This document shows positions 4,318 through 16,083 of a stretch of 32,825 nt of DNA, one piece after another; position 1 is the stretch's first letter, and each line of letters begins with the position of its first letter. Source of the stretch: Candidatus Parcubacteria bacterium (GTDB taxonomy: Bacteria > Patescibacteriota > Minisyncoccia > Phycocordibacterales > CAYZPE01). The stretch is from positions 1 to 32,825 of the forward strand of contig JBJOQC010000006.1 of NCBI GenBank assembly GCA_046050145.1, written 5' to 3'. The notes under the pieces were generated by a model. It was not told where the DNA came from and did not search any database. It saw only the letters and a list, made by a program, of their open reading frames with translations. The translations under genes were made by a program, and so were the position numbers.

Positions 4318-4347
4318 TGGTTTAATTGTATCTAAATTAGAATGTTG

Positions 4348-4420
4348 TGCGCGATAGAGGATTCGAACCTCTGACATCGTCAACGTCAATGACGCGCTCT
4401 ACCAACTGAGCTAACCGCGC
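4348..4420 (-). tRNA. tRNA-Val (anticodon GAC)
   Basis: The minus strand reads GCGCGGT-TA-GCTC-AGTTGGTA-GAGC-G-CGTCA-TTGACGT-TGACG-ATGTC-AGAGG-TTCGAAT-CCTCT-ATCGCGC-A. This is a full cloverleaf with a 7-bp acceptor stem and GAC in the anticodon loop. CCA is not encoded. Confidence 0.9.
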
Positions 4421-4533: not shown

Positions 4534-4605
4534 GGCCCCATCGTCTAACGGTTAGGACACGGCCTTTTCAAGGCTGGAATCGGAGTTCGATTCTCCGTGG
4601 GGTCA
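4534..4605 (+). tRNA. tRNA-Glu (anticodon UUC)
   Basis: GGCCCCA-TC-GTCT-AACGGTTA-GGAC-A-CGGCC-TTTTCAA-GGCTG-GAAT-CGGAG-TTCGATT-CTCCG-TGGGGTC-A. This is a full cloverleaf with TTC at positions 34-36. CCA is not encoded. Confidence 0.9.
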
Positions 4606-4617
4606 CAGCTGCTTAAA

Positions 4618-4645: not shown

Positions 4646-4947
4646 CATGCTGCCGGGTCCCTATGGAGAATCGAAAGACGGAGGCGCGAAGCCAACCGAC
4701 CGGCAGGAGGTTGTAGCCGAGTCGGGGTCGCGAGAAAATTCTGAAAGAATTTTATTTGTGACCGATTCGCTTCATTTTCTGCGGGGTCGCGAACACTTAG
4801 TAGAATTGAGTATTTTATACGAAAATTATACTTAGTGATTCGTGACACAAAAAGCAAAATAAAATCGCCCCAGCTTGTCTGGGGTGGTTTTATTTTAAGC
4901 CTAGTTTCCGTCAGGAAATTTATTTGTGACACAAAAAATCTAATATT
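4646..4947. other. repeat-rich, partly GC-rich non-coding stretch (candidate small RNA(s) and/or att-site scars)
   Basis: There is no credible ORF. CTGCCGG (4650-4656) pairs with CCGGCAG (4700-4706) around a GGC-GCGAA-GCC hairpin. Several direct repeats and tRNA-Glu 3'-end-like fragments are present, plus an internal terminator at 4865-4896 (see findings). Confidence 0.4.
4865..4896 (+). terminator. rho-independent terminator inside the non-coding stretch
   Basis: TCGCCCCAG (4865-4873), loop CTTGT, CTGGGGTGG (4879-4887; two G-U pairs), followed by TTTTATTTT. This implies a plus-strand transcript ends here although no CDS precedes it. Confidence 0.55.
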
Positions 4948-5578: not shown

Positions 5579-5671
5579 AAAAAGCTCCTGTGGAGGGTGG
5601 GTGTAAAGGACTGAAGAACTTTTATTATAATAACATGTTTATTTAAATTTGTAAACTAAAATAAAAAACTA

Positions 5672-5707
5672 AAACCCCCTCGCCCGTATCCCAGGGCGAG
5701 GGGGTTT
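5672..5707. terminator. strong orphan hairpin (bidirectional terminator-like)
   Basis: AAACCCCCTCGCCC (5672-5685), 8-nt loop, GGGCGAGGGGGTTT (5694-5707): a 14-bp perfect stem. It is flanked by an A-run upstream and TTTGTT downstream. It sits between the divergent starts at 5578 and 5783, so it terminates no annotated gene. Confidence 0.5.
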
Positions 5708-5782
5708 TTGTTAAAAAATTAAAAAAATCTCATCTGGAAATAGGTCTTTAAATATGGTTTAATTGACTGTAATTCATAATTT

Positions 5783-8700
5783 ATGGCAATAACAAACATT
5801 GGTGACAATACACTTTCGTCAAACTTAAAGAGCATTTTACCTAATTGTAATAAGGTGGACGCGTTAGTTGGCTACTTCTACTTTTCTGGGTTTAGAGATC
5901 TTCATGAAGAGCTTAAAGATAAGGAAATAAGGATTTTGGTTGGAATGGACATCGATAAGAAGATTATCGAAAAAGTTTCGTCTCTAAAAGACCTTAATTT
6001 TGATTTACATACTACTGAGACAAAGGTAACTTCTCGATCAGGAGCCAAAGAAGACTATATAGAAAACTTTTCTCGTATCTTCAACGATACTGATTATTTT
6101 GATAACAACGAATCACAAAAAGCATTTGAGATCTTTTTAAATAAGATTAAAGATGGGAGTTTGCAGATTAAGAAAACAGCACAAGCGAATCACTCAAAGT
6201 TTTATATCCTCCACAACAAGCCAGAATTTTCTACTAATGGAATTACGCCAGGAATCGTTATCGAAGGTTCAAGTAATTTGACGTTCTCAGGGCTCAAAGG
6301 GCAAGGAGAACACAATCGAATTCTCCAGGAGAAGCATTATTACGAAGATGATGTTAAGCGTTTTGAGGAATGCTGGTCAGACTCAGAAAATATCGTCATT
6401 ACTGACTTAGATTCTGCTGAAAATTTCATTAAGGAAATTAAAAGTAAGATTTGGCTCTACTCTTTGCCTAATCCGCTTTTGATGTACTACAAAGTCCTTA
6501 GTGAGTACTTTTCAATATCAGAGATAGAAAATATGAAGACACCTTACAGTATTACTGGAGGTAAATATTCGGATCTTAAGTATCAAAAAGACGCTATAAA
6601 TCTAGGTATTGATCGCATCAAGAAATTCGGAGGAGTAATTATTGCCGATGTGGTAGGTCTAGGAAAAAGTATTATTGCTTCTGCTATCGCACATAATCTT
6701 GGATACAAGACGATTATTATTGCACCACCCCACCTTGAGAATCAGTGGAAAGACTATATGTCCGAATTCGATTTTAAAGGATTCGTATATTCAACTGGAA
6801 AAATCGAAGAAGCCCTCCAAAGACATGAGAATGATGACGGCAAGCTTCTGATTGTTCTTGATGAAGCGCACAAACATCGAAATGAAGATACTGATAATTA
6901 CAAACTACTACATAGACTCTGTGCAGGTCATTATGTAATGGCTCTTTCTGCAACTCCATTCAACAATGATCCAAAAGATATTTACGCACTGATTAAATTG
7001 TTCAGTACGCCTGGACAGTCAACTATCAGAACTGTAGAAAACTTAAGTATGTCTTTCCATATGCTTTTCAAGCGATATAAGGCGGTACGAAGAGATCTAC
7101 GAAAGAATCTTAAAGATCAGGGTGAAAATGTAGAGATAAAAACTGAACTACATTCTATTGCTGATGAATTACGACAGATGATTGAGCCTTTGATCATTCG
7201 CAGATCACGTCTTGATCTAGAAGAAATTGAAGAATATAGAGACGACCTTAAAAAACAAGGTGTTGCCTTCGCTAAAGTTAAAGACCCAGAACTACTTGAA
7301 TATGACTTGGGAGATATGTTTGATTTGTATGTAAATACACTTGAAAAGATTGCCCCTGAAGACAGAAGTACGAGTTTTATTGGTGCACGATATAAGCCAG
7401 CTTCATATATCAATCAAGGATCAAAATTCCTTGAGAAGATTGTTGAGCAAGATGACGAAGATGGTATGTCAGCAGAAGAAAAGCTTCAGCGTATTCAGCA
7501 GGGACAAAGTAACCTTGCTCGCTTTATGCGAAGACTCCTTGTTCGTCGCTTTGAAAGTTCTGTGGGTGCATTTAGGTTGTCACTTAAGAATATGATTACA
7601 TCGTCTGAGACGATGCTTGATTGGTATGAAAATCGCCAGGAAGTACCCATATTTAAAAAAGGTGTATTGCCTGAAGTTGAGTACTTAAATGAGTTAGATG
7701 AAAAAGATGTCGAGGAATTATTTAACAAACTCGAAGATAAAGGATTGATACGAATTCCACTTAGTGAATTGCAGCCACAATTTGGTGATCATCTAAGACA
7801 CGACATAGCACTACTTAAATCAATTGATTTAGAATGGTCTGGAAATGACAATGATCCTAAATACGAATTCTTTAAAAAGAAGATTACCGACTCATTGAAA
7901 GAAAATGGAGCTAGAAAGATTGTAATATTTACGGAATTCTCTGATACGGCAAACTATGTCTTTCAAAAGTTACAGAAAGATGGTTTTAATCGTGTCTACA
8001 AATACAGCTCTGAAGATGCTTCTGAGGAAAATAAGAAGATAATTAGAACAAACTTTGATGCAGGACTTGAGGAATCAAAGCAGTCTAATGATTTCGATAT
8101 TATTATCGCTACTGATGCAATTTCTGAAGGATTCAACCTGCACCGAGCAGGAGCAATCATTAACTATGATATTCCTTACAACCCAACACGAGTAATCCAG
8201 CGTGTAGGACGTATTAACCGTATAAACAGAAAAGTTTTTGAAGAACTATATATTTATAACTTCTTTCCAACACTCACTGGAGAGCTAGAAACTCGTACTC
8301 GTGCAATTTCTACATTGAAGATGGATTTGATACACACACTTCTTGGAGAAGATACTAAAACACTAACATCTGAGGAAGATCTTAAGAACTATTTTGCAAA
8401 GCAGTACAAAGAAGAAGATAGTAAAAACGAAAGCTTGTCATGGGACGCTCCATATAGAAATGCGTGGCTGAAAATCAAAGATGATAAGCAGATAATGTCG
8501 CAAGTTGCACAGATTCCACATCGCTCAAGAATTGCACGAAGGACTAAGGGTGCTAGTGGTGTTGTCGCTTTTGCTAAGAAAAGCGGAAACTATGTATTCG
8601 CGTTTGGAGCTACTCCAGAAACAGTTGAGATAGTTTCTCCTCAAGTTGCACTCCCTTTGTTTAACGAGGTAATTGATTCTGAGCAATCTATCCAAACAAG

Positions 8701-9070
8701 TGTGAACTTTGATCCTATCTATAAAATAGCAAAGGAACATATTTTTAAAGACAATACAAAAGCTAGTGTAGACGGTGGACGAAAACAAGACGCACTCAAT
8801 CGAATCAAACTCCTGAGTGAGCTATATCCACAAGCAAAAGACCTCTGTATCGACATCATTCGTGCAATCAAGGATTTGGATGCACTGCCAAACGGAGTTC
8901 TAAAGGAGATTGTTGAACTAAGAATCGATAAGACAAATCCTGACACTGCTTTTCAGGAACTACGAGTACTTATACCTCATAAATACATCGAGAGTATCTT
9001 TAAAACAGCTGATAGGGCAAATGACGATGGTCAATTGATTGTATTGTCTGAGGAATTAATAGCACTATGA
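5783..9070 (+). CDS. PLD(HKD)-family nuclease domain fused to an SNF2-type SF2 ATPase/helicase, with a C-terminal domain of unknown function
   Basis: 1095 aa. HKD-type motif HSKFYIL (nt 6191-6211) followed by GSSNLT. SF2 motifs: I GLGKS (6656-6670), II DEAH (6860-6871), III LSATPFNN, IV KIVIFTEF, V-VI ATDAISEGFNL...YNPTRVIQRVGRINR. The last ~270 aa have no motif I recognise. The TGA overlaps the next ATG. Confidence 0.9.
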   Translation: MAITNIGDNTLSSNLKSILPNCNKVDALVGYFYFSGFRDLHEELKDKEIRILVGMDIDKKIIEKVSSLKDLNFDLHTTETKVTSRSGAKEDYIENFSRIFNDTDYFDNNESQKAFEIFLNKIKDGSLQIKKTAQANHSKFYILHNKPEFSTNGITPGIVIEGSSNLTFSGLKGQGEHNRILQEKHYYEDDVKRFEECWSDSENIVITDLDSAENFIKEIKSKIWLYSLPNPLLMYYKVLSEYFSISEIENMKTPYSITGGKYSDLKYQKDAINLGIDRIKKFGGVIIADVVGLGKSIIASAIAHNLGYKTIIIAPPHLENQWKDYMSEFDFKGFVYSTGKIEEALQRHENDDGKLLIVLDEAHKHRNEDTDNYKLLHRLCAGHYVMALSATPFNNDPKDIYALIKLFSTPGQSTIRTVENLSMSFHMLFKRYKAVRRDLRKNLKDQGENVEIKTELHSIADELRQMIEPLIIRRSRLDLEEIEEYRDDLKKQGVAFAKVKDPELLEYDLGDMFDLYVNTLEKIAPEDRSTSFIGARYKPASYINQGSKFLEKIVEQDDEDGMSAEEKLQRIQQGQSNLARFMRRLLVRRFESSVGAFRLSLKNMITSSETMLDWYENRQEVPIFKKGVLPEVEYLNELDEKDVEELFNKLEDKGLIRIPLSELQPQFGDHLRHDIALLKSIDLEWSGNDNDPKYEFFKKKITDSLKENGARKIVIFTEFSDTANYVFQKLQKDGFNRVYKYSSEDASEENKKIIRTNFDAGLEESKQSNDFDIIIATDAISEGFNLHRAGAIINYDIPYNPTRVIQRVGRINRINRKVFEELYIYNFFPTLTGELETRTRAISTLKMDLIHTLLGEDTKTLTSEEDLKNYFAKQYKEEDSKNESLSWDAPYRNAWLKIKDDKQIMSQVAQIPHRSRIARRTKGASGVVAFAKKSGNYVFAFGATPETVEIVSPQVALPLFNEVIDSEQSIQTSVNFDPIYKIAKEHIFKDNTKASVDGGRKQDALNRIKLLSELYPQAKDLCIDIIRAIKDLDALPNGVLKEIVELRIDKTNPDTAFQELRVLIPHKYIESIFKTADRANDDGQLIVLSEELIAL

Positions 9071-12000
9071 AATTAAACGAAAAGTACAACAAAAATTCCT
9101 TTATTGATTTTATAGATACTTTCTTACCTGAAGACTTTCAGTCGAAAGAGGAAGATATAATCATCAAGAAAGACAGATACAAAGAGATAACCAAAGCAAA
9201 AATTTTGGGTTTTTGCGAGTCCTTGGATTTGCATGTACTGGAGATGGATCATACCCACGATAAAGATCCAAGAGTAGCTATTGCGACCGATGCCTTTAAA
9301 ATTTTGGCAGATCATTGGATTCATCGAGCTTTGGTTATATTCAAAAACAACGACTCTGAAAATTATCGTTTTTCATGCCTCACCATCACTCTTGATCTCA
9401 ATGATAAAAACAAGGTAACTAAGAAGTACTCTAATGCACGTCGGTACTCGTTTTATCTGGGTGCTAATGCAAAGGTTAAAACTCCTGAGCAACAACTCAT
9501 TAAGAAAGGAAAGGTAAAAGATATAGATGATCTGCTCAGTCGTTTCTCTGTTGAGGTTGTTAATAAGCAATTTTACTTAGAGGTTGCTAAATTCTTTGAT
9601 GAGCTGGTATCTATCGAGGATCAAAACCTTATTCTTCCTGGTGTATCAGAAAAAGACATAAATACTCGCAAGAGCTTTGCTGTGCGACTCATCGGCCGTA
9701 CGATGTTCTGTTGGTTCTTAAAACAAAAGAAGTCTGATAACGGACAATTGATTCCCGACGAACTTTTGTCTTCAAAAATCGTATCTGATAACTATTATCA
9801 CAATACACTTGAGCCGTTATTTTTTGGTGTGCTAAATACAAGTATTGATTCTCGTGATATTCGCAGTGATTTGTTTGATAAAGTGCCATATCTCAACGGA
9901 GGACTTTTTAATCCTCAATCAGACGATTATTATGAGCTAGATAGAGGAACTTTTGCCTCAAGGCACATAAACACTCTTAAAATCAGTGATTCTTGGTTCA
10001 AGGACTTTTTTGAGCTTCTAGAAACTTATAACTTTACTATTGATGAAAATACAGTTTTTGATCAAGAGCTTTCTGTTGATCCGGAAATGCTTGGTAGGAT
10101 TTTTGAAAATCTTCTTGCAGAAATAAATCCGGAAACTGGAAGCAGTGAGCGTAAGCGAACAGGAAGTTTTTATACTCCACGCCAAATCGTTGAATACATG
10201 GTTGATCAATCATTGATTGAATATCTAAAAACTAAAACAAAAATTGATGAGAAAAAATTATCTGCTCTTGTTAGTTATGACTTAACAGATGATACAGAAC
10301 ATCCACTAGATGATGAGGAAAAACAAGAAGTAGTAAATGCAATAGAATCTCTTAAAATTCTTGACCCCGCTTGCGGTTCCGGTGCATACCCAATCGGCGC
10401 GCTTCAAAAAATTGTTTATATTCTTCAGCAAATTGATCCGGATTGTAAAATGTGGCTAGAGCAGAAACTAAAAAATGTTCCGGAGTTATATAAGAAAAAA
10501 ATAATTGACGAAGTTAAATCTAACCCTTTTGACTACACACGGAAACTTGATGTTATCAAGAACTCAATCTTTGGTGTAGATATTCAGCCGATTGCGGTGG
10601 ATGTTTCCCGCTTGAGATGTTTTTTGACGCTTGTCGTTGAATCAGAAGTAAATGATACAAAACCAAACAGAGGGATAGAACCTTTACCGAACTTGGACTT
10701 TAAATTTGTCTGTGCGAATACTTTGATTGGCTTGCCAAAATCTCAATCCAGCAATCTTTTTGAAGATCATTCCGGCATCATTGAACTTTCAACGATAATG
10801 TCAGAGTATTTTACTGCTAATCGTTCCGAAAAAGAATCAATAAAGACTAGATTCTTTAATAAGCAAAAAGATTTACTCAATCGAATGATTGGACTCAAAG
10901 CTACTGGAGAATTAACCCTTAAACTAACTCTTTGGAATCCATTTAGTAATACTTCAAATTCTTGGTTTGACCAAGAGTGGATGTTTGGGTTAGAGGAAAA
11001 ATTTGATTTTATCATTGGAAATCCACCATGGGGAGCAGATTTATCAAAAGAACAAAAGGTTGATTTAGCAGAGTTATATCCTGAGATTGATTCATCTACC
11101 CCAAATTCCTTCGCTTATTTTATAGGTCTAGCATTGAGAATATCAAAAAGTAATGTATCTTTCATATTGCCGGATAGCATTTTGGTAAAAGATTATCCCA
11201 AAACTCGTGAACTTTTTAAGAATTTGTTATATGAGGTATCTTGGTTTCAAAATTCCGGAGTACCTGATGAGCATAAGTTATTTACATATGTTTCGCATGA
11301 TGTTTGCGTCTTGTTTATGGGTAAAAAGGACACTCTAAAAGTTAAATGTAATAAATGGGAATATGATAACGGAAAATACTCTAAAAAACATTGGGAGGAA
11401 ACAAACGAGATATTAATGCCGAGAGATTTTGAATATAGGATAAACTTGTTGGCAACTGATGATGATTATAATCTTCTAAAAAAAGTTACAGCGAATAGTT
11501 ACCCATTGAATAGCAAATATCAATGTCACGAAGGTGTTCATACTGGTAATGCCAGAGAAATCTTATTTAAGAAAGAAAAAGAAAATGAATTTTGTAAGCC
11601 ACTTTTTATTGGCGGAAAGAACGGTGATGTTATTCAAAACTACTATTCAAAACCCTCCGGTTGGTATGTTGATTATAGGAAAGAAATTGTGGACGAAGAT
11701 AAGGGATATTACGCTTCTTTAAGAAAAGAAGATATATTTAAACTACCGAAAATATACATAACTAGAACTGGAAATCCAATTAAGTCTTTTTATGATGAGA
11801 ATACTTATGCATCAAATAACTTCTTTTCTTTACAAGCAAAAGATTATTCAAGTAATACGCCAGAAAATCTAAAATTTATTTTAGCATGTCTTGTTTCTAA
11901 ATTTTCAAACTATTTCATCAGAACATTTGCGTGTCCTCGTTTGGGAAATACATTTATTGAAACAAAAATTACTCACTTACTAAATTTGCCAATACCAAGT

Positions 12001-12171
12001 GTTTCTGAAGAAAAAAGGATGTCCATCATTGAGCTAGTCGATTTAGTTATCAAAGAAAAAAAGAAGGACATTGAAGCAGATATTTCAAAGATTGAATCAC
12101 AAATTGATGAATTAGTTATTGACTTGTACGGACTAAACGAAGAAGAGAAAGAAATAATTAGAAATTCTTAA
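9067..12171 (+). CDS. gamma-class N6-adenine DNA methyltransferase with a TaqI_C-like target-recognition domain (Eco57I/PglX-like, no recognisable nuclease)
   Basis: 1034 aa. FYTPRQIVEYMV, motif I ILDPACGSGAYP (about nt 10360-10395), FGVDIQPIAVDVSRLRCFL, and motif IV IIGNPPWGA (about nt 11011-11037). The C-terminal region matches the TaqI_C pattern (CHEGVHTGNA ... KIYITRTG ... GNTFIETKITHLLNLPIP) and ends in an IDLYGLNEEEKEII tail. ATG 9067-9069 overlaps TGA 9068-9070 of the upstream gene. Confidence 0.9.
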   Translation: MKLNEKYNKNSFIDFIDTFLPEDFQSKEEDIIIKKDRYKEITKAKILGFCESLDLHVLEMDHTHDKDPRVAIATDAFKILADHWIHRALVIFKNNDSENYRFSCLTITLDLNDKNKVTKKYSNARRYSFYLGANAKVKTPEQQLIKKGKVKDIDDLLSRFSVEVVNKQFYLEVAKFFDELVSIEDQNLILPGVSEKDINTRKSFAVRLIGRTMFCWFLKQKKSDNGQLIPDELLSSKIVSDNYYHNTLEPLFFGVLNTSIDSRDIRSDLFDKVPYLNGGLFNPQSDDYYELDRGTFASRHINTLKISDSWFKDFFELLETYNFTIDENTVFDQELSVDPEMLGRIFENLLAEINPETGSSERKRTGSFYTPRQIVEYMVDQSLIEYLKTKTKIDEKKLSALVSYDLTDDTEHPLDDEEKQEVVNAIESLKILDPACGSGAYPIGALQKIVYILQQIDPDCKMWLEQKLKNVPELYKKKIIDEVKSNPFDYTRKLDVIKNSIFGVDIQPIAVDVSRLRCFLTLVVESEVNDTKPNRGIEPLPNLDFKFVCANTLIGLPKSQSSNLFEDHSGIIELSTIMSEYFTANRSEKESIKTRFFNKQKDLLNRMIGLKATGELTLKLTLWNPFSNTSNSWFDQEWMFGLEEKFDFIIGNPPWGADLSKEQKVDLAELYPEIDSSTPNSFAYFIGLALRISKSNVSFILPDSILVKDYPKTRELFKNLLYEVSWFQNSGVPDEHKLFTYVSHDVCVLFMGKKDTLKVKCNKWEYDNGKYSKKHWEETNEILMPRDFEYRINLLATDDDYNLLKKVTANSYPLNSKYQCHEGVHTGNAREILFKKEKENEFCKPLFIGGKNGDVIQNYYSKPSGWYVDYRKEIVDEDKGYYASLRKEDIFKLPKIYITRTGNPIKSFYDENTYASNNFFSLQAKDYSSNTPENLKFILACLVSKFSNYFIRTFACPRLGNTFIETKITHLLNLPIPSVSEEKRMSIIELVDLVIKEKKKDIEADISKIESQIDELVIDLYGLNEEEKEIIRNS

Positions 12172-12210: not shown

Positions 12211-12432
12211 CTATCCTTTTATGTTTCTTGGATCGTTTCCGTACGAGTTTCTCCACCCGATAGTTCCGTCAAGGTTCTGAACAAGAAGTTCTAGATGTTG
12301 GTTTTGGGCGATCTCTCTCGCTTTTTCAACTGCCTCTGCTTTTGTGTCACAAATAGCAGATGCTTTTTGATTACCGACAACTTTGACCTTCCAGTCTTCG
12401 CCATTCGGACTAACGAAAATTTGGTTAGCCAT
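12211..12432 (-). CDS. DUF2188 family small protein
   Basis: 73 aa. The segments GEDWKVKVVGNQKASAICDTKAEAVEKAREIAQNQHLELLVQNLDGTIGWRNSYGNDP match the DUF2188 pattern. Confidence 0.7.
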   Translation of the reverse strand: MANQIFVSPNGEDWKVKVVGNQKASAICDTKAEAVEKAREIAQNQHLELLVQNLDGTIGWRNSYGNDPRNIKG

Positions 12433-12662: not shown

Positions 12663-12702
12663 TTTTGTATAAACTTGTTCGTACGAACATGTTTATACAA
12701 AA
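12663..12702. promoter_or_regulatory. 40-bp near-perfect palindrome over the start of the HTH-Panacea gene (candidate auto-operator)
   Basis: Positions 12663-12682 pair with 12683-12702, with one mismatch (12675/12690). The core is TTGTATAAAC-t-TGTTCGTACGAACA-t-GTTTATACAA. It contains a TATAAA -10-like box (12668-12673) and the ATG at 12689-12691. A possible -35, TTGACT, lies at 12647-12652 (15-nt spacing). Confidence 0.5.
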
Positions 12703-13384
12703 AATAAAAGAGTTACGTATTAAAAAAGGATTAAGTCAAGAGAAAGTTGCGCAAGCAATGGGTGTATCTCGTCCTACTTATACCAGTTTTGAGTCTGGAA
12801 AAAAACAACATATTGATGTTGAGGAAGCGCAGAAGCTCGCTGTCTTTTTTGGTATGACGTTAAATGAACTAATCTCCGGGACAATGGAGGATATGGAAAA
12901 ATATAAACAGATGATTGTTGCTTATTTGAGAATGAATATCTCAACCTCTCGAAATGGAAGGGTTACCAAGACTAAGCTTGCCAAACTTTTGTATCTTGCT
13001 GATTTCGCTTGGTTTTATGAGAGATTAGAAAGTATGAGCGGTATGCAATATAAAAAATTTCCTTATGGGCCAGTACCAGATGCTTTTTTTCGTGCTCTAT
13101 CTGAACTAGAGGAAAGTGGAAAAATTAAAATTGACAAAGAGAGAGAGGGTGAAAAAGAGATGTATTTAATTAGTGAGACTGAAAGCAATAAGAACGAAAA
13201 GATTGCTAACGTTTCTGTTGAAGAGCAAAAACTAATGGAAAAAATTGCAGATAAGTGGAAAGACAAGAATACTCAGGCGATTGTAAATTTTACACACAAT
13301 CAGTTACCATACACTGTTTGTCGTGATAACGAAGTTATACCTTATGAACTTATAACCCAAGAAGACGCCGACAAGGTTTATTAA
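12689..13384 (+). CDS. XRE-family HTH fused to a Panacea/DUF4065 (SocA/GepA-like) antitoxin domain
   Basis: N-terminus IKELRIKKGLSQEKVAQAMGVSRPTYTSFESGKK...LAVFFGMTLNELI is an HTH_3-type domain. KTKLAKLLYLADFAWFYERLESMSGMQYKKFPYGPVPDAF is the DUF4065 signature. ATG 12689 is preferred, but the TTG at 12665 from the track is possible. Confidence 0.8.
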   Translation: MFIQKIKELRIKKGLSQEKVAQAMGVSRPTYTSFESGKKQHIDVEEAQKLAVFFGMTLNELISGTMEDMEKYKQMIVAYLRMNISTSRNGRVTKTKLAKLLYLADFAWFYERLESMSGMQYKKFPYGPVPDAFFRALSELEESGKIKIDKEREGEKEMYLISETESNKNEKIANVSVEEQKLMEKIADKWKDKNTQAIVNFTHNQLPYTVCRDNEVIPYELITQEDADKVY

Positions 13385-13391
13385 GACCGTT

Positions 13392-13784
13392 ATGCAAGGT
13401 ATTTATTCAGTACAAATAGAGAAGTATGCAGAAGGACATTTTATTAAAAGTTTTGCAAAAAAATACAATAATCATTGGGACGTTACTTTAAAAGCCGTCG
13501 TCTTGCTCCTTGAGCGCATTGATCTATTACTTCAAACCACTAAAGCTGAAATTATTTCAGACAAAGAGGGTGTGAAAATAATTAAAGTAGAATTTACCAT
13601 TGCAAAAAGCAGGGAATCAGCAAAATCTTCAGGTAATAGATGTGTTGTTGCTTGGCATAAGCAGGATCAATCCATATTCGTCTTGCTGGTATACGGAAAA
13701 ACAGATGTAAAAGGAGGACACGAAACTGTCTGGTGGAAATCATTGGTTAAAGAAAATTATCCCAAATATAAAGATATTGTTTAA
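13392..13784 (+). CDS. putative toxin partner, RelE/ParE-superfamily-like
   Basis: 130 aa, starting 7 nt after the antitoxin stop. KVEFTIAKSRESAKSSGNRCVVAWHKQDQSIFVLLVYGKTDV resembles the K-x-R...GKSGGyRvIy...vlLl-iY-K block of RelE/HigB/Gp49-like toxins. The assignment is by pattern only. Confidence 0.5.
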   Translation: MQGIYSVQIEKYAEGHFIKSFAKKYNNHWDVTLKAVVLLLERIDLLLQTTKAEIISDKEGVKIIKVEFTIAKSRESAKSSGNRCVVAWHKQDQSIFVLLVYGKTDVKGGHETVWWKSLVKENYPKYKDIV

Positions 13785-13787
13785 ATT

Positions 13788-14537
13788 ATGTCCCAATATT
13801 ACAAATCAAACAGGGGGGCGGGGTGGAATTATGGCGGTGATAATTGGAAGCTGAGTCGATCTAAGATTGATTTGTTTTTGGAGTGTCCAAGGTGTTTTTA
13901 TATTGATAATAAGCTGGGTGTGAAGCGTGTGCCTGGGTTTCCATTTTCAATAAATAGTGCGGTTGATCATTTGCTCAAACAAGAATTTGACGGTCATAGA
14001 GTAAAAAATGAACAACATCCTTTGCAGAAAGAGTACGGAATTGATGCGAGGCCTGCAGCGCACGATGAGCTCGATGAGTGGCGAAGAAATTTTGGTGGGG
14101 TTCGCTTTTTTCATGAGTCTACGGGGATGCTCGTTACGGGAGCTATTGATGATCTGTGGGTGAATGGTAAGGGTGAATATATTGTTGTTGATTATAAAGC
14201 GACAGCAAAAGAAGAGGCTGTAAAGGTGCTTGATCAGGAGTGGCAGGATGGATACAAGAGGCAGATGGAAGTGTATCAGTGGCTTTTGAGGCAGAACGGA
14301 CTCAAGGTTTCAGATACCGGGTACTTTGTGTACTGTACGGGAAAGATGGATAGACAGGCTTTTGATAAAAGAATTGAGTTTGATATTAATCTCATTCCAT
14401 ACACCGGAAGTGATGCGTGGGTGGAAAAGACTTTAGAGAAGATAAAGAAGTGTTTGGAAAGTGAAAAAATTCCAAAATCTGGTGAGGATTGCGATCATTG
14501 CTTGTATTTTAACGCGAGACAAGAGGTTGAGGAATAA
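13788..14537 (+). CDS. Cas4-like PD-(D/E)XK nuclease with four cysteines (RecB/Cas4 family)
   Basis: 249 aa. GAIDDLW ... IVVDYKAT gives the D...(D/E)xK motif. RQMEVYQWLL gives the QxxxY motif. Cys pairs occur at ECPRCF (C33, C36) and CDHC near the C-terminus. The gene starts 3 nt after the upstream stop. Confidence 0.75.
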   Translation: MSQYYKSNRGAGWNYGGDNWKLSRSKIDLFLECPRCFYIDNKLGVKRVPGFPFSINSAVDHLLKQEFDGHRVKNEQHPLQKEYGIDARPAAHDELDEWRRNFGGVRFFHESTGMLVTGAIDDLWVNGKGEYIVVDYKATAKEEAVKVLDQEWQDGYKRQMEVYQWLLRQNGLKVSDTGYFVYCTGKMDRQAFDKRIEFDINLIPYTGSDAWVEKTLEKIKKCLESEKIPKSGEDCDHCLYFNARQEVEE

Positions 14538-14563
14538 ACTGAATAGCTTGGTACTATATAGAT

Positions 14564-15361
14564 ATGAATAAGAAACTTATTTTTATACTTCTATTTTTTG
14601 TGATCATTTTTGGTTTAGGTTTTTATTTTTTAGAGGAAGATTCGTATGGTGACGTTGCTTCAAGTGGTGAAATAAGTGAGACATGTAATGCGGTAGGTAT
14701 AGAGCTTCGTGGAACGTTGCTAACATACGTTTCTTCTTCAGGGCACCAGTCTTTTCAAGACGATGTTGTTTCGAGTGAGGAAGTTGTCGGTTATTTATGG
14801 GAAGCTGAAAATGATGATGACATCAAAGCTGTAATTGTGGAAGTTGATTCTGCGGGCGGTGCGCCCGTAGCAGGTGAAGAGATCGCAAATATGATAAAAG
14901 AGATGACGAAGCCAGTCATTGCTGTTATTCGCCAACAGGGCTTGTCGGCATCGTACTGGGCGATTAGTAGTGCAGACAGAATCTTTGCCTCAAGAAATTC
15001 TGATGTGGGGAGTATCGGTGTGACTTCTTCGTACTCAGAAAATATTCTGACAGATAAGCGTTACGTTGAACTGTCGAGTGGAAAATTTAAAGATGCAGGA
15101 GATCCTGACAAAAGACTGACTGAAGAAGAAAAGAGTATTTTTCTTCGAGATATAAAGATTGTTCACGAAAATTTTATTCAAGACGTTGCAAACAATAGAA
15201 ATATTCCTATTGAATCTGTGCGAGTTTTTGCGGATGGATCATCGGTGCTTGGAGAGACTGCAAAGTCGCTTGGTCTTATTGATGAAATTGGAAGTTTGAT
15301 TGATGTTAAAAGATATATAGGTGACTTGATAGGGGAAAAAGCTGATGTGTGTTGGTATTAA
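14564..15361 (+). CDS. sppA: signal peptide peptidase SppA (S49 family, 36K type)
   Basis: N-terminal TM helix. IKAVIVEVDSAGGAPVAGEEIANMIKEMTKPVIAVIRQQGLSASYWAISSADRIFASRNSDVGSIGV is typical of S49 peptidases. Confidence 0.85.
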   Translation: MNKKLIFILLFFVIIFGLGFYFLEEDSYGDVASSGEISETCNAVGIELRGTLLTYVSSSGHQSFQDDVVSSEEVVGYLWEAENDDDIKAVIVEVDSAGGAPVAGEEIANMIKEMTKPVIAVIRQQGLSASYWAISSADRIFASRNSDVGSIGVTSSYSENILTDKRYVELSSGKFKDAGDPDKRLTEEEKSIFLRDIKIVHENFIQDVANNRNIPIESVRVFADGSSVLGETAKSLGLIDEIGSLIDVKRYIGDLIGEKADVCWY

Positions 15362-15366
15362 TTAAT

Positions 15367-15495
15367 ATGAAAGAAGAAACAAAAAGATTAATGGATGATC
15401 ATGATATTGACGAAGATACTGCTGAGCAAGCTCAGGAATTTATCGACGAAGGACTGGATGAAGATGAAGCAATTGAGATTGCTGAGAATTTGTAA
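15367..15495 (+). CDS. possible 42-aa highly acidic small protein
   Basis: ATG 15367 to TAA 15493-15495 reads MKEETKRLMDDHDIDEDTAEQAQEFIDEGLDEDEAIEIAENL. It starts 5 nt after the sppA stop and lies before the terminator at 15534. It is too short for the ORF track, and the only support is position. Confidence 0.3.
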   Translation: MKEETKRLMDDHDIDEDTAEQAQEFIDEGLDEDEAIEIAENL

Positions 15496-15533
15496 AAAAG
15501 GCAGAGGGGTAGTCTACAGACTAAAATAAAACA

Positions 15534-15562
15534 ATACGCCACACCTGTGGCGTATTTATTTT
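15534..15562 (+). terminator. rho-independent terminator
   Basis: ATACGCCAC (15534-15542), loop ACCT, GTGGCGTAT (15547-15555), then TTATTTT. Confidence 0.75.
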
Positions 15563-15603
15563 GGCTTTACCACTTCACTATTTTTGATAGCTAGAGGATT
15601 AGA

Positions 15604-16083
15604 GTGACTTTAGATGAAAATATGCGAATATATAGATATATGGAATCAGATGGGGTAGAGAATAATAAAAATTTGCTGGATGAAATTGAAAGACGCTTTC
15701 AGTTTACGATTATTGTTAGTTTATTTTTAGATTCTGCATGGAGTCTTTTTTTGAATAAATTTACTATTTTTGTCGGCACGTTTAAAAATACTTCTTTTGT
15801 TGTTTTGGTAGCCTCATATGTTTTTTTAAGTTATCTTATTTTTGAGGTCTTTAAAAAGAAGTTAAGAAATAAGATATTAAATTTTATTAGTAGTATTTTA
15901 CTTGTATTTTCTTTTTGTTTAATTGTTGTTATCGGATTTTCTCCAAATCAAAATATGGTTGAAGCTTTTAATTGGTATTACTTTACTTCATCTTTCGCAC
16001 TTTTAGGAATCATGTTTCTTCCACTGTCTGTTATTTTTCTAACTGTGGGTGGAAACTTATATGCTTGGCTCAAGCGTTCCTAA
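15604..16083 (+). CDS. hypothetical multi-pass membrane protein
   Basis: 159-aa ORF (GTG start in the track; an in-frame ATG at 15622 is an alternative) with 4-5 hydrophobic helices. I recognise no family. Confidence 0.45.
   Translation: MTLDENMRIYRYMESDGVENNKNLLDEIERRFQFTIIVSLFLDSAWSLFLNKFTIFVGTFKNTSFVVLVASYVFLSYLIFEVFKKKLRNKILNFISSILLVFSFCLIVVIGFSPNQNMVEAFNWYYFTSSFALLGIMFLPLSVIFLTVGGNLYAWLKRS

Follow-up and report, generated by a model that had tools for sequence, protein, structure and literature searches.

Two adjacent same-strand open reading frames (ORFs), called here A and B, were analyzed in a 32,825-nucleotide stretch of DNA from a Candidatus Parcubacteria bacterium (contig JBJOQC010000006.1; the whole stretch is referred to below as the window). 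They form an obligate and usually translationally coupled unit, which probably functions as a two-subunit, ATP-dependent restriction-modification (R-M) enzyme. ORF A joins a phospholipase D (PLD) nuclease domain to an SNF2-like ATPase of superfamily 2 (SF2), and ORF B is an N6-adenine methyltransferase (MTase) with a variable target-recognition domain (TRD). The observations behind this reading are the domain content of both proteins, the invariant motifs, the obligate and coupled pairing, the lack of any other conserved partner and a specificity region that is shuffled. The pair fits no named system; it is unnamed, uncharacterized and very widespread, and its logic is nearest to those of the Type ISP enzymes and of MANTIS. 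An initial annotation of the same DNA had proposed an enzyme of this kind, with recognition and self-marking by B and translocation and cleavage by A, and this proposal is supported, at the level of sequence, by the pairing, the shuffled TRD and the invariant motifs.

Domain content and pairing of the two ORFs

The Pfam profiles PLDc_2 (30.8 bits versus a gathering score of 27), SNF2-rel_dom, ResIII and Helicase_C scored above their gathering thresholds on A, and the same was true of Eco57I (73.8 bits), N6_Mtase and TaqI_C on B, where MmeI_Mtase was a weak match. So, the families that the initial annotation expected on each protein were recovered, and both ORFs and every motif listed in it were found at the places where it had put them. 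The single HKD motif of A is HSKFYIL (amino acids (aa) 137–143, nucleotides (nt) 6191–6211, with H137 and K139), and it is followed by GSSNLT (aa 162–167, GSSN at nt 6266–6283). The N-lobe of the ATPase displays motifs I (GLGKS, aa 292–296), II (DEAH, aa 360–363) and III (SATP, aa 389–392), and the C-lobe matched those of Hef, Chd1, ISWI and RapA in a search of PDB sequences. In an alignment of 43 homologues (67–93% identity), H137, K139, G162, S163, S164 and N165 were invariant, as were the Walker A and B motifs and motifs III and VI, which indicates that the nuclease and the ATPase activities are both under selection. These invariant catalytic motifs, together with the existence of thousands of homologues, mean that A and B are not a chance pair of ORFs. 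By analogy with Nuc, BfiI, SauUSI and MtsD, the presence of a single HKD motif implies that a dimer of A would be required to form one active site.

The identity of A to its homologues is even along the chain (62–91%). Its C-terminal region of about 270 residues, in which the initial annotation had recognized no motif, gave indeed no match in Pfam or PADLOC, and no family or fold was assigned to it; the AlphaFold2 (AF2) model of this region was poor, with a predicted local distance difference test score (pLDDT) of 56. As to described families, the best match of A in PADLOC and NCBIfam was DrmD, with NF038317 scoring 141.5 bits versus a cut-off of 610. The PADLOC helicase models BrxHI and BrxHII also gave scores on A, and the HmaA helicase model of the Hma (helicase-methylase-ATPase) systems matched its C-lobe only (1.7e-23).

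Concerning B, motifs X (FYTPRQIV, aa 368–375), I (DPACGSGAYP, aa 433–442) and IV (GNPPWG, containing NPPW, aa 651–656) follow one another in the gamma-class order. This order and the TaqI_C-like region, both pointed out in the initial annotation, were borne out by Pfam and by the motif coordinates. The sequence LYGLNEEE is at aa 1020–1027. When B was compared with 119 homologues, the part up to NPPW (aa 1–650) was 63–94% identical versus just 8–28% for aa 651–1000. A profile of the C-terminal half of B matched CamA, M.BseCI, PglX/BrxX (1e-19 and 1e-13) and M.TaqI in a PDB sequence search. On the other hand, the NCBIfam PglX models gave at most 45.8 bits on B versus cut-offs of at least 400.

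The first 330 residues of B constitute a family-specific module, which is N-terminal in all of the 150 best relatives, in proteins of ~1000–1350 aa (409 clusters at E ≤ 1e-30). Its description as nuclease-less in the initial annotation was sustained insofar as diverse members have no D...(D/E)XK triad in common and no Pfam or fold match was obtained. A profile of 20 diverse N-termini found no match among PDB sequences, the Pfam scans of the individual members had no family in common, and a Foldseek search with the AF2 model of aa 1–330 (pLDDT 77.7) versus PDB and BFVD returned no hit with E ≤ 0.001. The PADLOC profiles for Type IIG enzymes do not start to align on B before aa 87 or 158, and in the strand of B that aligns with them, which reads ALVIFK, ALVVFN, ALILFI or ALIAYY, neither an acid nor a lysine is conserved. 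Basic or small residues make up most of the invariant positions across diverse modules (R69, R101, S103, S122, R126, S128, G132, K136, T139 and R159), E59 is near-invariant, and H62 and D67 are conserved in many members. So, it can be said that a nuclease is not detectable in the module and is probably absent, a conclusion that is drawn from negative evidence on a domain whose fold order is compatible with a degenerate core of the PD-(D/E)XK type.

The pairing of both ORFs was looked at from either side. The search starting from A covered one genome per GTDB species and found relatives in 278 genomes; 84 loci were examined, made up of 80 kept from this species scan, three from earlier look-ups and the window. 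In 76 of the 84, B was directly downstream of A on the same strand. The eight exceptions were six contig ends, one locus (L062) with a different gene after A and then the end of the contig, and one locus (L065) of a Nitrospirota metagenome-assembled genome. The latter is a decayed copy (9237–12146) composed of an intact A, a Fic/DOC-like gene, a frame-broken remnant of the N-terminus of B and an ORF resembling 5-methylcytosine MTases. In the opposite direction, a profile of the N-terminal module of B was run against metagenome contigs, and loci were counted when the contig extended 300 nt or more upstream: A was upstream of B on the same strand in all the 66 assessable loci, and this holds down to ~30–40% identity. 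The conservation of the linked genes as neighbors elsewhere, which the initial annotation had raised, was thus found in both directions.

The ATGA overlap between the stop codon of A and the start codon of B, noticed in the initial annotation, was read in the junction (Table 1), indicating translational coupling. Overlaps of 4 nt occur in 40 of the 76 loci and gaps of up to 5 nt in about 63. An insert of 0.4–1.5 kb separates A from B in eight loci. A protein of ~460 aa (cluster 20) adjoins A and B in six loci (L049, 9890–11266; L062, 3317–4759; L015; L052; L055; L077), and in L049 this protein (458 aa) is encoded in the insert between A and B. The clustering of the ORFs of the 84 loci revealed no third conserved gene, and the sole recurrent neighbors were genes of mobile elements, namely those of a serine recombinase (18 loci) and of a terminase-like protein (9 loci).

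Identity correlations were computed over 2415 locus pairs. The identity of A correlated strongly with that of the N-terminal module of B (Pearson coefficient 0.86), less with that of the MTase core (0.61) and little with that of the specificity region (0.16). There were 47 locus pairs with A more than 85% identical and the TRD less than 30%, and 17 with A less than 60% and the TRD more than 50%. Between the window and the locus L004, for instance, A is 93% identical and the TRD 17%. As the TRD varies independently of A, specificity domains are freely exchanged on a conserved chassis, as happens with the methyltransferases of Type I, Type IIG and BREX systems.

Wider relatives of A, annotated as PLD-SNF2 ‘helicase-related protein’ and only 24–32% identical, partner with other MTases. 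On the Enterococcus faecium plasmid pQL50 the relative is accompanied by DUF4391, a site-specific MTase and a DEAD/DEAH helicase, and on plasmids of Allomeiothermus silvanus and Thermus oshimai (L085 and L087, versus L086 for pQL50) by a 2.3-kb DNA methyltransferase gene and a hypothetical gene. Since distant PLD-SNF2 proteins occur with several kinds of MTases, the combination of a PLD-motor protein plus an MTase appears as a recurring theme.

Proposed mechanism and alternative explanations

In the scheme favored here we infer the physical complex, the direction of licensing, the translocation, the cleavage geometry and the hemimethylation. The TaqI/CamA-like, exchangeable recognition domain of B would read a short DNA target, probably asymmetric, and its gamma-class core would methylate adenine at N6, marking the host DNA as self. 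As A has no detectable sequence-recognition domain, its recruitment or licensing would depend on B sitting on an unmethylated site. The contact between them would most likely be established via the 330-aa N-terminal module of B, since this module co-diverges with A, and perhaps via the C-terminus of A too. The SNF2-type motor of A would spend ATP to travel along double-stranded DNA, and two A protomers would join their single HKD motifs to make up one metal-independent PLD active site, able to cut the DNA. If methylation affected one strand only, as it does with MmeI, Type ISP, Type III, BREX and MANTIS, cleavage would need two inverted unmethylated sites.

A more specific form of this scheme, put forward as a tentative possibility, is that of a minimal motor-nuclease R-M system. 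A Type IIG-like MTase would have lost its nuclease, and the remnant N-terminal domain would now dock and license the PLD-SNF2 protein in trans, without the AAA+ loader of MANTIS or BREX. If this were true, the minimal form would bridge, in evolutionary terms, Type IIG, Type ISP and the BREX-related systems, and would also be a two-protein model for reconstituting effector recruitment, a step so far not achieved for MANTIS.

Several points weigh against the two-subunit enzyme. The correlation between A and the N-terminus of B could derive from common descent and tight linkage, rather than from contact, and no fusion of A to B (‘Rosetta stone’) was present among the best 150 of 2073 relatives of the B module. 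The C-terminal 270 aa of A could hold a DNA-recognition domain of their own. The literature search found no methylome, cleavage or phage-protection data on the A-B family. In the case of MANTIS, cleavage in vitro could not be achieved, and MtsD failed to co-purify with its partner proteins (bioRxiv 10.64898/2026.09.23.753747), so that the recruitment step is unproven even in the closest model. Finally, the modeled order of secondary-structure elements at the N-terminus of B (beta-beta-beta-alpha-beta) fits a PD-(D/E)XK core and, with E59, H62 and D67 kept, is compatible with a cryptic nuclease in B.

This last point is also the starting point of an alternative in which B would be a self-sufficient Type IIG R-M enzyme with a diverged N-terminal nuclease, while A would be an accessory motor-nuclease that processes or degrades the DNA once B has made the first cut, or a second barrier. 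Besides the fold order and the near-invariance of E59, the best PADLOC models for B are those named REase_MTase_IIG (Table 1), one of which begins to align within the N-terminal alpha/beta domain; two weak, sub-threshold Foldseek matches of the module, 9y1l and 4ic1, are of PD-(D/E)XK fold; and Cj0031, a distant relative, restricts phage alone. We consider this explanation unlikely in view of the lack of a D...(D/E)XK triad kept in the B family and of any Pfam, PDB-profile or significant Foldseek match, and also of the strict two-way linkage of B with A, which would be needless for an autonomous enzyme.

Quite improbable is, in our opinion, an exclusion of the BREX kind with no cleavage, where B would mark self DNA and A would be a remodeler or translocase that keeps unmethylated DNA from being replicated, with a non-nucleolytic or regulatory role for the PLD domain. 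The invariance of the HKD histidine and lysine and of the GSSN of A suggests instead that the PLD domain is catalytic, restriction by MANTIS requires the PLD histidine, and none of the BREX core genes is present in the window or in related loci (BrxA, BrxB, BrxC/PglY and PglZ were absent), so that the pair does not fit BREX. These arguments outweigh the similarity of the C-terminal half of B to PglX/BrxX, the scores of A on the BrxHI/BrxHII and DrmD models and the fact that BREX type 1 restricts with no detectable cleavage (reviewed in PMC12707154). It is very hard to believe that A could be an autonomous SauUSI-like Type IV enzyme with a C-terminal reader, and B a co-transferred MTase with a separate role (orphan or epigenetic, or protective against another system), since, although the domain order of A (PLD, SF2, C-terminal domain) equals that of SauUSI and the C-terminus of A has no assignment, the adjacency, coupling and co-divergence with the N-terminal module of B extend over ~140 loci, the C-terminus of A is conserved and not variable, the variable specificity element sits in B, and A matched neither SauUSI nor SRA domains in sequence.

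Comparison with known systems and significance

No curated NCBIfam model reached its cut-off on A or B, nor is there a PADLOC model for the pair, in agreement with the statement of the initial annotation that this combination does not map cleanly onto a named type. The qualification as ‘split Type ISP-like’, made in it too, is acceptable concerning the parts and their order: like LlaGI and LlaBIII, the pair runs from nuclease to SF2 motor, gamma-class N6-adenine MTase and C-terminal TRD, with one specificity element in the MTase half. However, a Type ISP enzyme consists of a single chain, whose nuclease is of the Mrr type (PD-QXK) and whose motor is of the GTGKT type, whereas A and B are two polypeptides with a PLD nuclease and an SNF2-like GLGKS motor. 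Given these differences in nuclease fold and motor family, the expression is an analogy and not a homology. Cleavage by Type ISP enzymes is dependent on ATP and on site orientation (PMC3874165), and the same would be expected for A-B.

MANTIS (Gao_RL) appears as BREX-related type 2 in a preprint (bioRxiv 10.64898/2026.09.23.753747), and the BREX-related systems are classified in PMC12839542. According to the preprint, MtsD is a PLD-SF2 protein that dimerizes to form a single active site. The H122A and Walker A mutants no longer restrict, DNA recognition by the partner MTase is a further requirement, and inverted site pairs are preferred because methylation occurs on one strand. ORF A is like MtsD in having an N-terminal, single-HKD PLD domain and then an SF2 ATPase, with His122 and Lys260 of MtsD comparable to H137 and K295 of A, a likeness established by description and not by sequence. 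Both systems would also share a PLD effector downstream of recognition by an N6-adenine MTase and the marking of self by adenine methylation at short asymmetric sites. The differences are nevertheless important. MANTIS needs, in addition, MtsA (a DUF499 AAA+ ATPase) and MtsB, whose domain is DUF3870 in the preprint (bioRxiv 10.64898/2026.09.23.753747) and DUF3780 in PMC12839542, and neither of them is in the window or in related loci. MtsC, an alpha-group MTase, carries its TRD centrally, while B belongs to the gamma group and has a C-terminal TaqI-like TRD and the family-specific N-terminal module. Because of the lack of a DUF499 or DUF3780 gene and of the different MTase class, membership of MANTIS, Hma or the BREX-related systems was rejected.

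The Type IIG enzymes (Eco57I, MmeI, Cj0031) are like B in the helical linker, the gamma-class MTase core and the TaqI_C-type TRD, but they have their own N-terminal PD-(D/E)XK nuclease and are ATP-independent, while the first ~86–157 aa of B do not align with the Type IIG profiles and B is always paired with A. Class 1 DISARM offers a similar set of activities, with the PLD nuclease DrmC, the SNF2 helicase DrmD and the large N6-adenine MTase DrmMI; however, PLD and SNF2 are in separate genes there and are fused in A. A DISARM remnant was rejected, because DrmA (helicase) and DrmB (DUF1998) are absent in all the loci and the DrmD score is far under the cut-off. In fact, DrmA/DrmB, the core whose absence had been remarked in the initial annotation, and also DUF499 and DUF3780, were missing from the window and from ~150 related loci. 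Finally, SauUSI combines PLD, SF2 ATPase and C-terminal domain in one chain and cleaves as a dimer in an ATP-dependent manner, but this Type IV enzyme, unlike A, has no partner MTase and targets methylated cytosine by an SRA-type C-terminal domain; A did not match SauUSI in PDB sequence searches, and neither SRA nor any other family matched the C-terminus of A.

The pair is not wholly unnoticed, as Milman et al. 2023 (PMC9881135) include this gene pair, in passing, in a table; this entry was all that was found in the literature searches for a name, and a 2025 review of R-M biology describes no such type. The PADLOC model C3a139, ‘HKD+Snf2’, comes from a survey of accessory genes of type III CRISPR. 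If the two-subunit enzyme is real, tools built on PADLOC-like models probably mislabel the pair, B as a solitary Type IIG enzyme and A as a generic helicase. A very common defense system of the candidate phyla radiation (CPR) would then be misclassified, and Type IIG enzymes would be overcounted, since the tally would include proteins unable to cut alone. Two proteins with a naturally swapped specificity domain would also be a tractable system for the licensing of a PLD-helicase nuclease by an MTase positioned on an unmethylated site. The A-B system adds no new principle to restriction biology and would be no great surprise to specialists; it is valuable for correcting annotations and as a minimal, tractable model of effector licensing.

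Distribution, genomic setting and coordinates

The nearest homologues are almost all from Patescibacteria/CPR, and the range of the pair comprises Patescibacteria, Planctomycetota, Elusimicrobiota, Ignavibacteriota, Actinomycetota, Spirochaetota and Bacteroidota (gut Bacteroidales). Cultured carriers, which make the A-B system testable, are Acidithrix ferrooxidans PY-F3, Rosettibacter primus and Parabacteroides distasonis (WP_009274870/WP_009274871). In the P. distasonis locus (L084), the genes of a helix-turn-helix (HTH) regulator and of an ‘RNA-binding domain-containing protein’ are just 5′ of A, and TIR and AAA genes are downstream.

In CPR loci (L001–L003, L006, L008, L010, L011, L013, L036 and others) the pair often adjoins genes of a large serine recombinase, a terminase-large-subunit-like protein and a ParB-N6_N4 MTase. 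This suggests that the pair is carried on prophages or integrative elements in CPR, yet A was on only 12 IMG/VR contigs. With so few viral contigs, and with the remaining window being cellular (FtsZ, FtsA, GyrA and peptidyl-tRNA hydrolase), a phage origin of the locus was rejected. The rest of the contig is that of an ordinary cellular chromosome, encoding also TsaD, an S1 protein and a thioredoxin-reductase-like protein.

The features of the locus are collected in Table 1. A hairpin separates the pair from divergent upstream genes, so that the operon starts after it.

Table 1. Features of the A-B locus and of its upstream flank, in window coordinates
Feature	Position	Strand	Basis or remark
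tRNA-Val, divergent from tRNA-Glu, upstream of the island	4347–4420	-	
tRNA-Glu, upstream of the island	4534–4606	+	
Terminator-like hairpin, GC-rich, 15-bp stem, T/A runs on both sides	5671–5708	.	Terminator-like scan and sequence reading
ORF A (1095 aa): PLD (HKD) nuclease, SNF2/SF2 ATPase and C-terminal region; proposed restriction (R) subunit	5783–9070	+	
PLD-like nuclease domain of A, aa 46–198, single HKD motif	5918–6376	+	Pfam PLDc_2
SF2/SNF2 ATPase N-lobe of A, aa 265–480	6575–7222	+	Pfam ResIII and SNF2-rel_dom
SF2 ATPase C-lobe of A, aa 701–815, motif VI QRVGRINR at aa 806–813	7883–8227	+	Pfam Helicase_C, 9.8e-16
C-terminal region of A, aa ~830–1095 (~270 aa)	8270–9067	+	Identity 62–83% among homologues
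Stop/start overlap of A and B, ATGA	9067–9070	+	ATG 9067–9069 overlaps TGA 9068–9070; junction reads gcactATGAaatt
ORF B (1034 aa): N-terminal module, gamma-class N6-adenine MTase, variable TaqI-like specificity region and conserved tail; proposed modification-specificity (M.S) subunit	9067–12171	+	
Family-specific N-terminal module of B, aa 1–330: alpha/beta domain (aa ~1–135), then helical region; proposed coupling interface	9067–10056	+	
Conserved MTase part of B, motifs X, I and IV in gamma-class order	10057–11034	+	Pfam Eco57I, N6_Mtase, MmeI_Mtase; PADLOC REase_MTase_IIG, 4e-66
Hypervariable region of B, aa ~670–1000: remaining MTase fold and TaqI_C-type TRD	11074–12066	+	Pfam TaqI_C
Conserved C-terminal tail of B (...LVIDLYGLNEEEKEIIRNS)	12067–12168	+	Identity back up to 55% over aa 1001–1034

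On the 3′ side of the pair there follow, in this order, an HTH-SocA/Panacea gene, a small ORF, a Cas4-like PD-(D/E)XK nuclease and an S49 peptidase, so the pair plus its neighbors looks like a small accessory island. No convincing att-like direct repeats of the adjoining tRNA genes, delimiting this island, were found in the window. The gene at 12665–13384 combines HTH_3 with SocA/Panacea (antitoxin-type), and its start is overlapped by a perfect, operator-like palindrome of 40 bp (arms 12663–12682 and 12683–12702). This palindrome (12663–12702) is the sole inverted repeat next to B, where no shufflon or inverted TRD cassettes of the kind in Milman et al. 2023 were found. The ORF of 130 aa at 13392–13784, after the HTH/Panacea gene, matched no family; both may be a Panacea-type toxin-antitoxin pair. 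In the spacer separating B from the HTH gene there is an antisense ORF of 73 aa (12211–12432, minus strand). Upstream of the pair, short direct repeats with spacings of 84 and 168 nt (4747–4937) lie within a minus-strand ORF that has no assignment.

The stretch 13788–16083 may be the remnant of a mobile element adjoining the pair. It contains the Cas4/RecB-like PD-(D/E)XK nuclease gene (13788–14537) and the S49 peptidase gene (14564–15361), the product of which matches phage head-maturation proteases. The GC skew is unusually strong (0.24–0.36) over the 13–16 kb of the window, where both genes are located.

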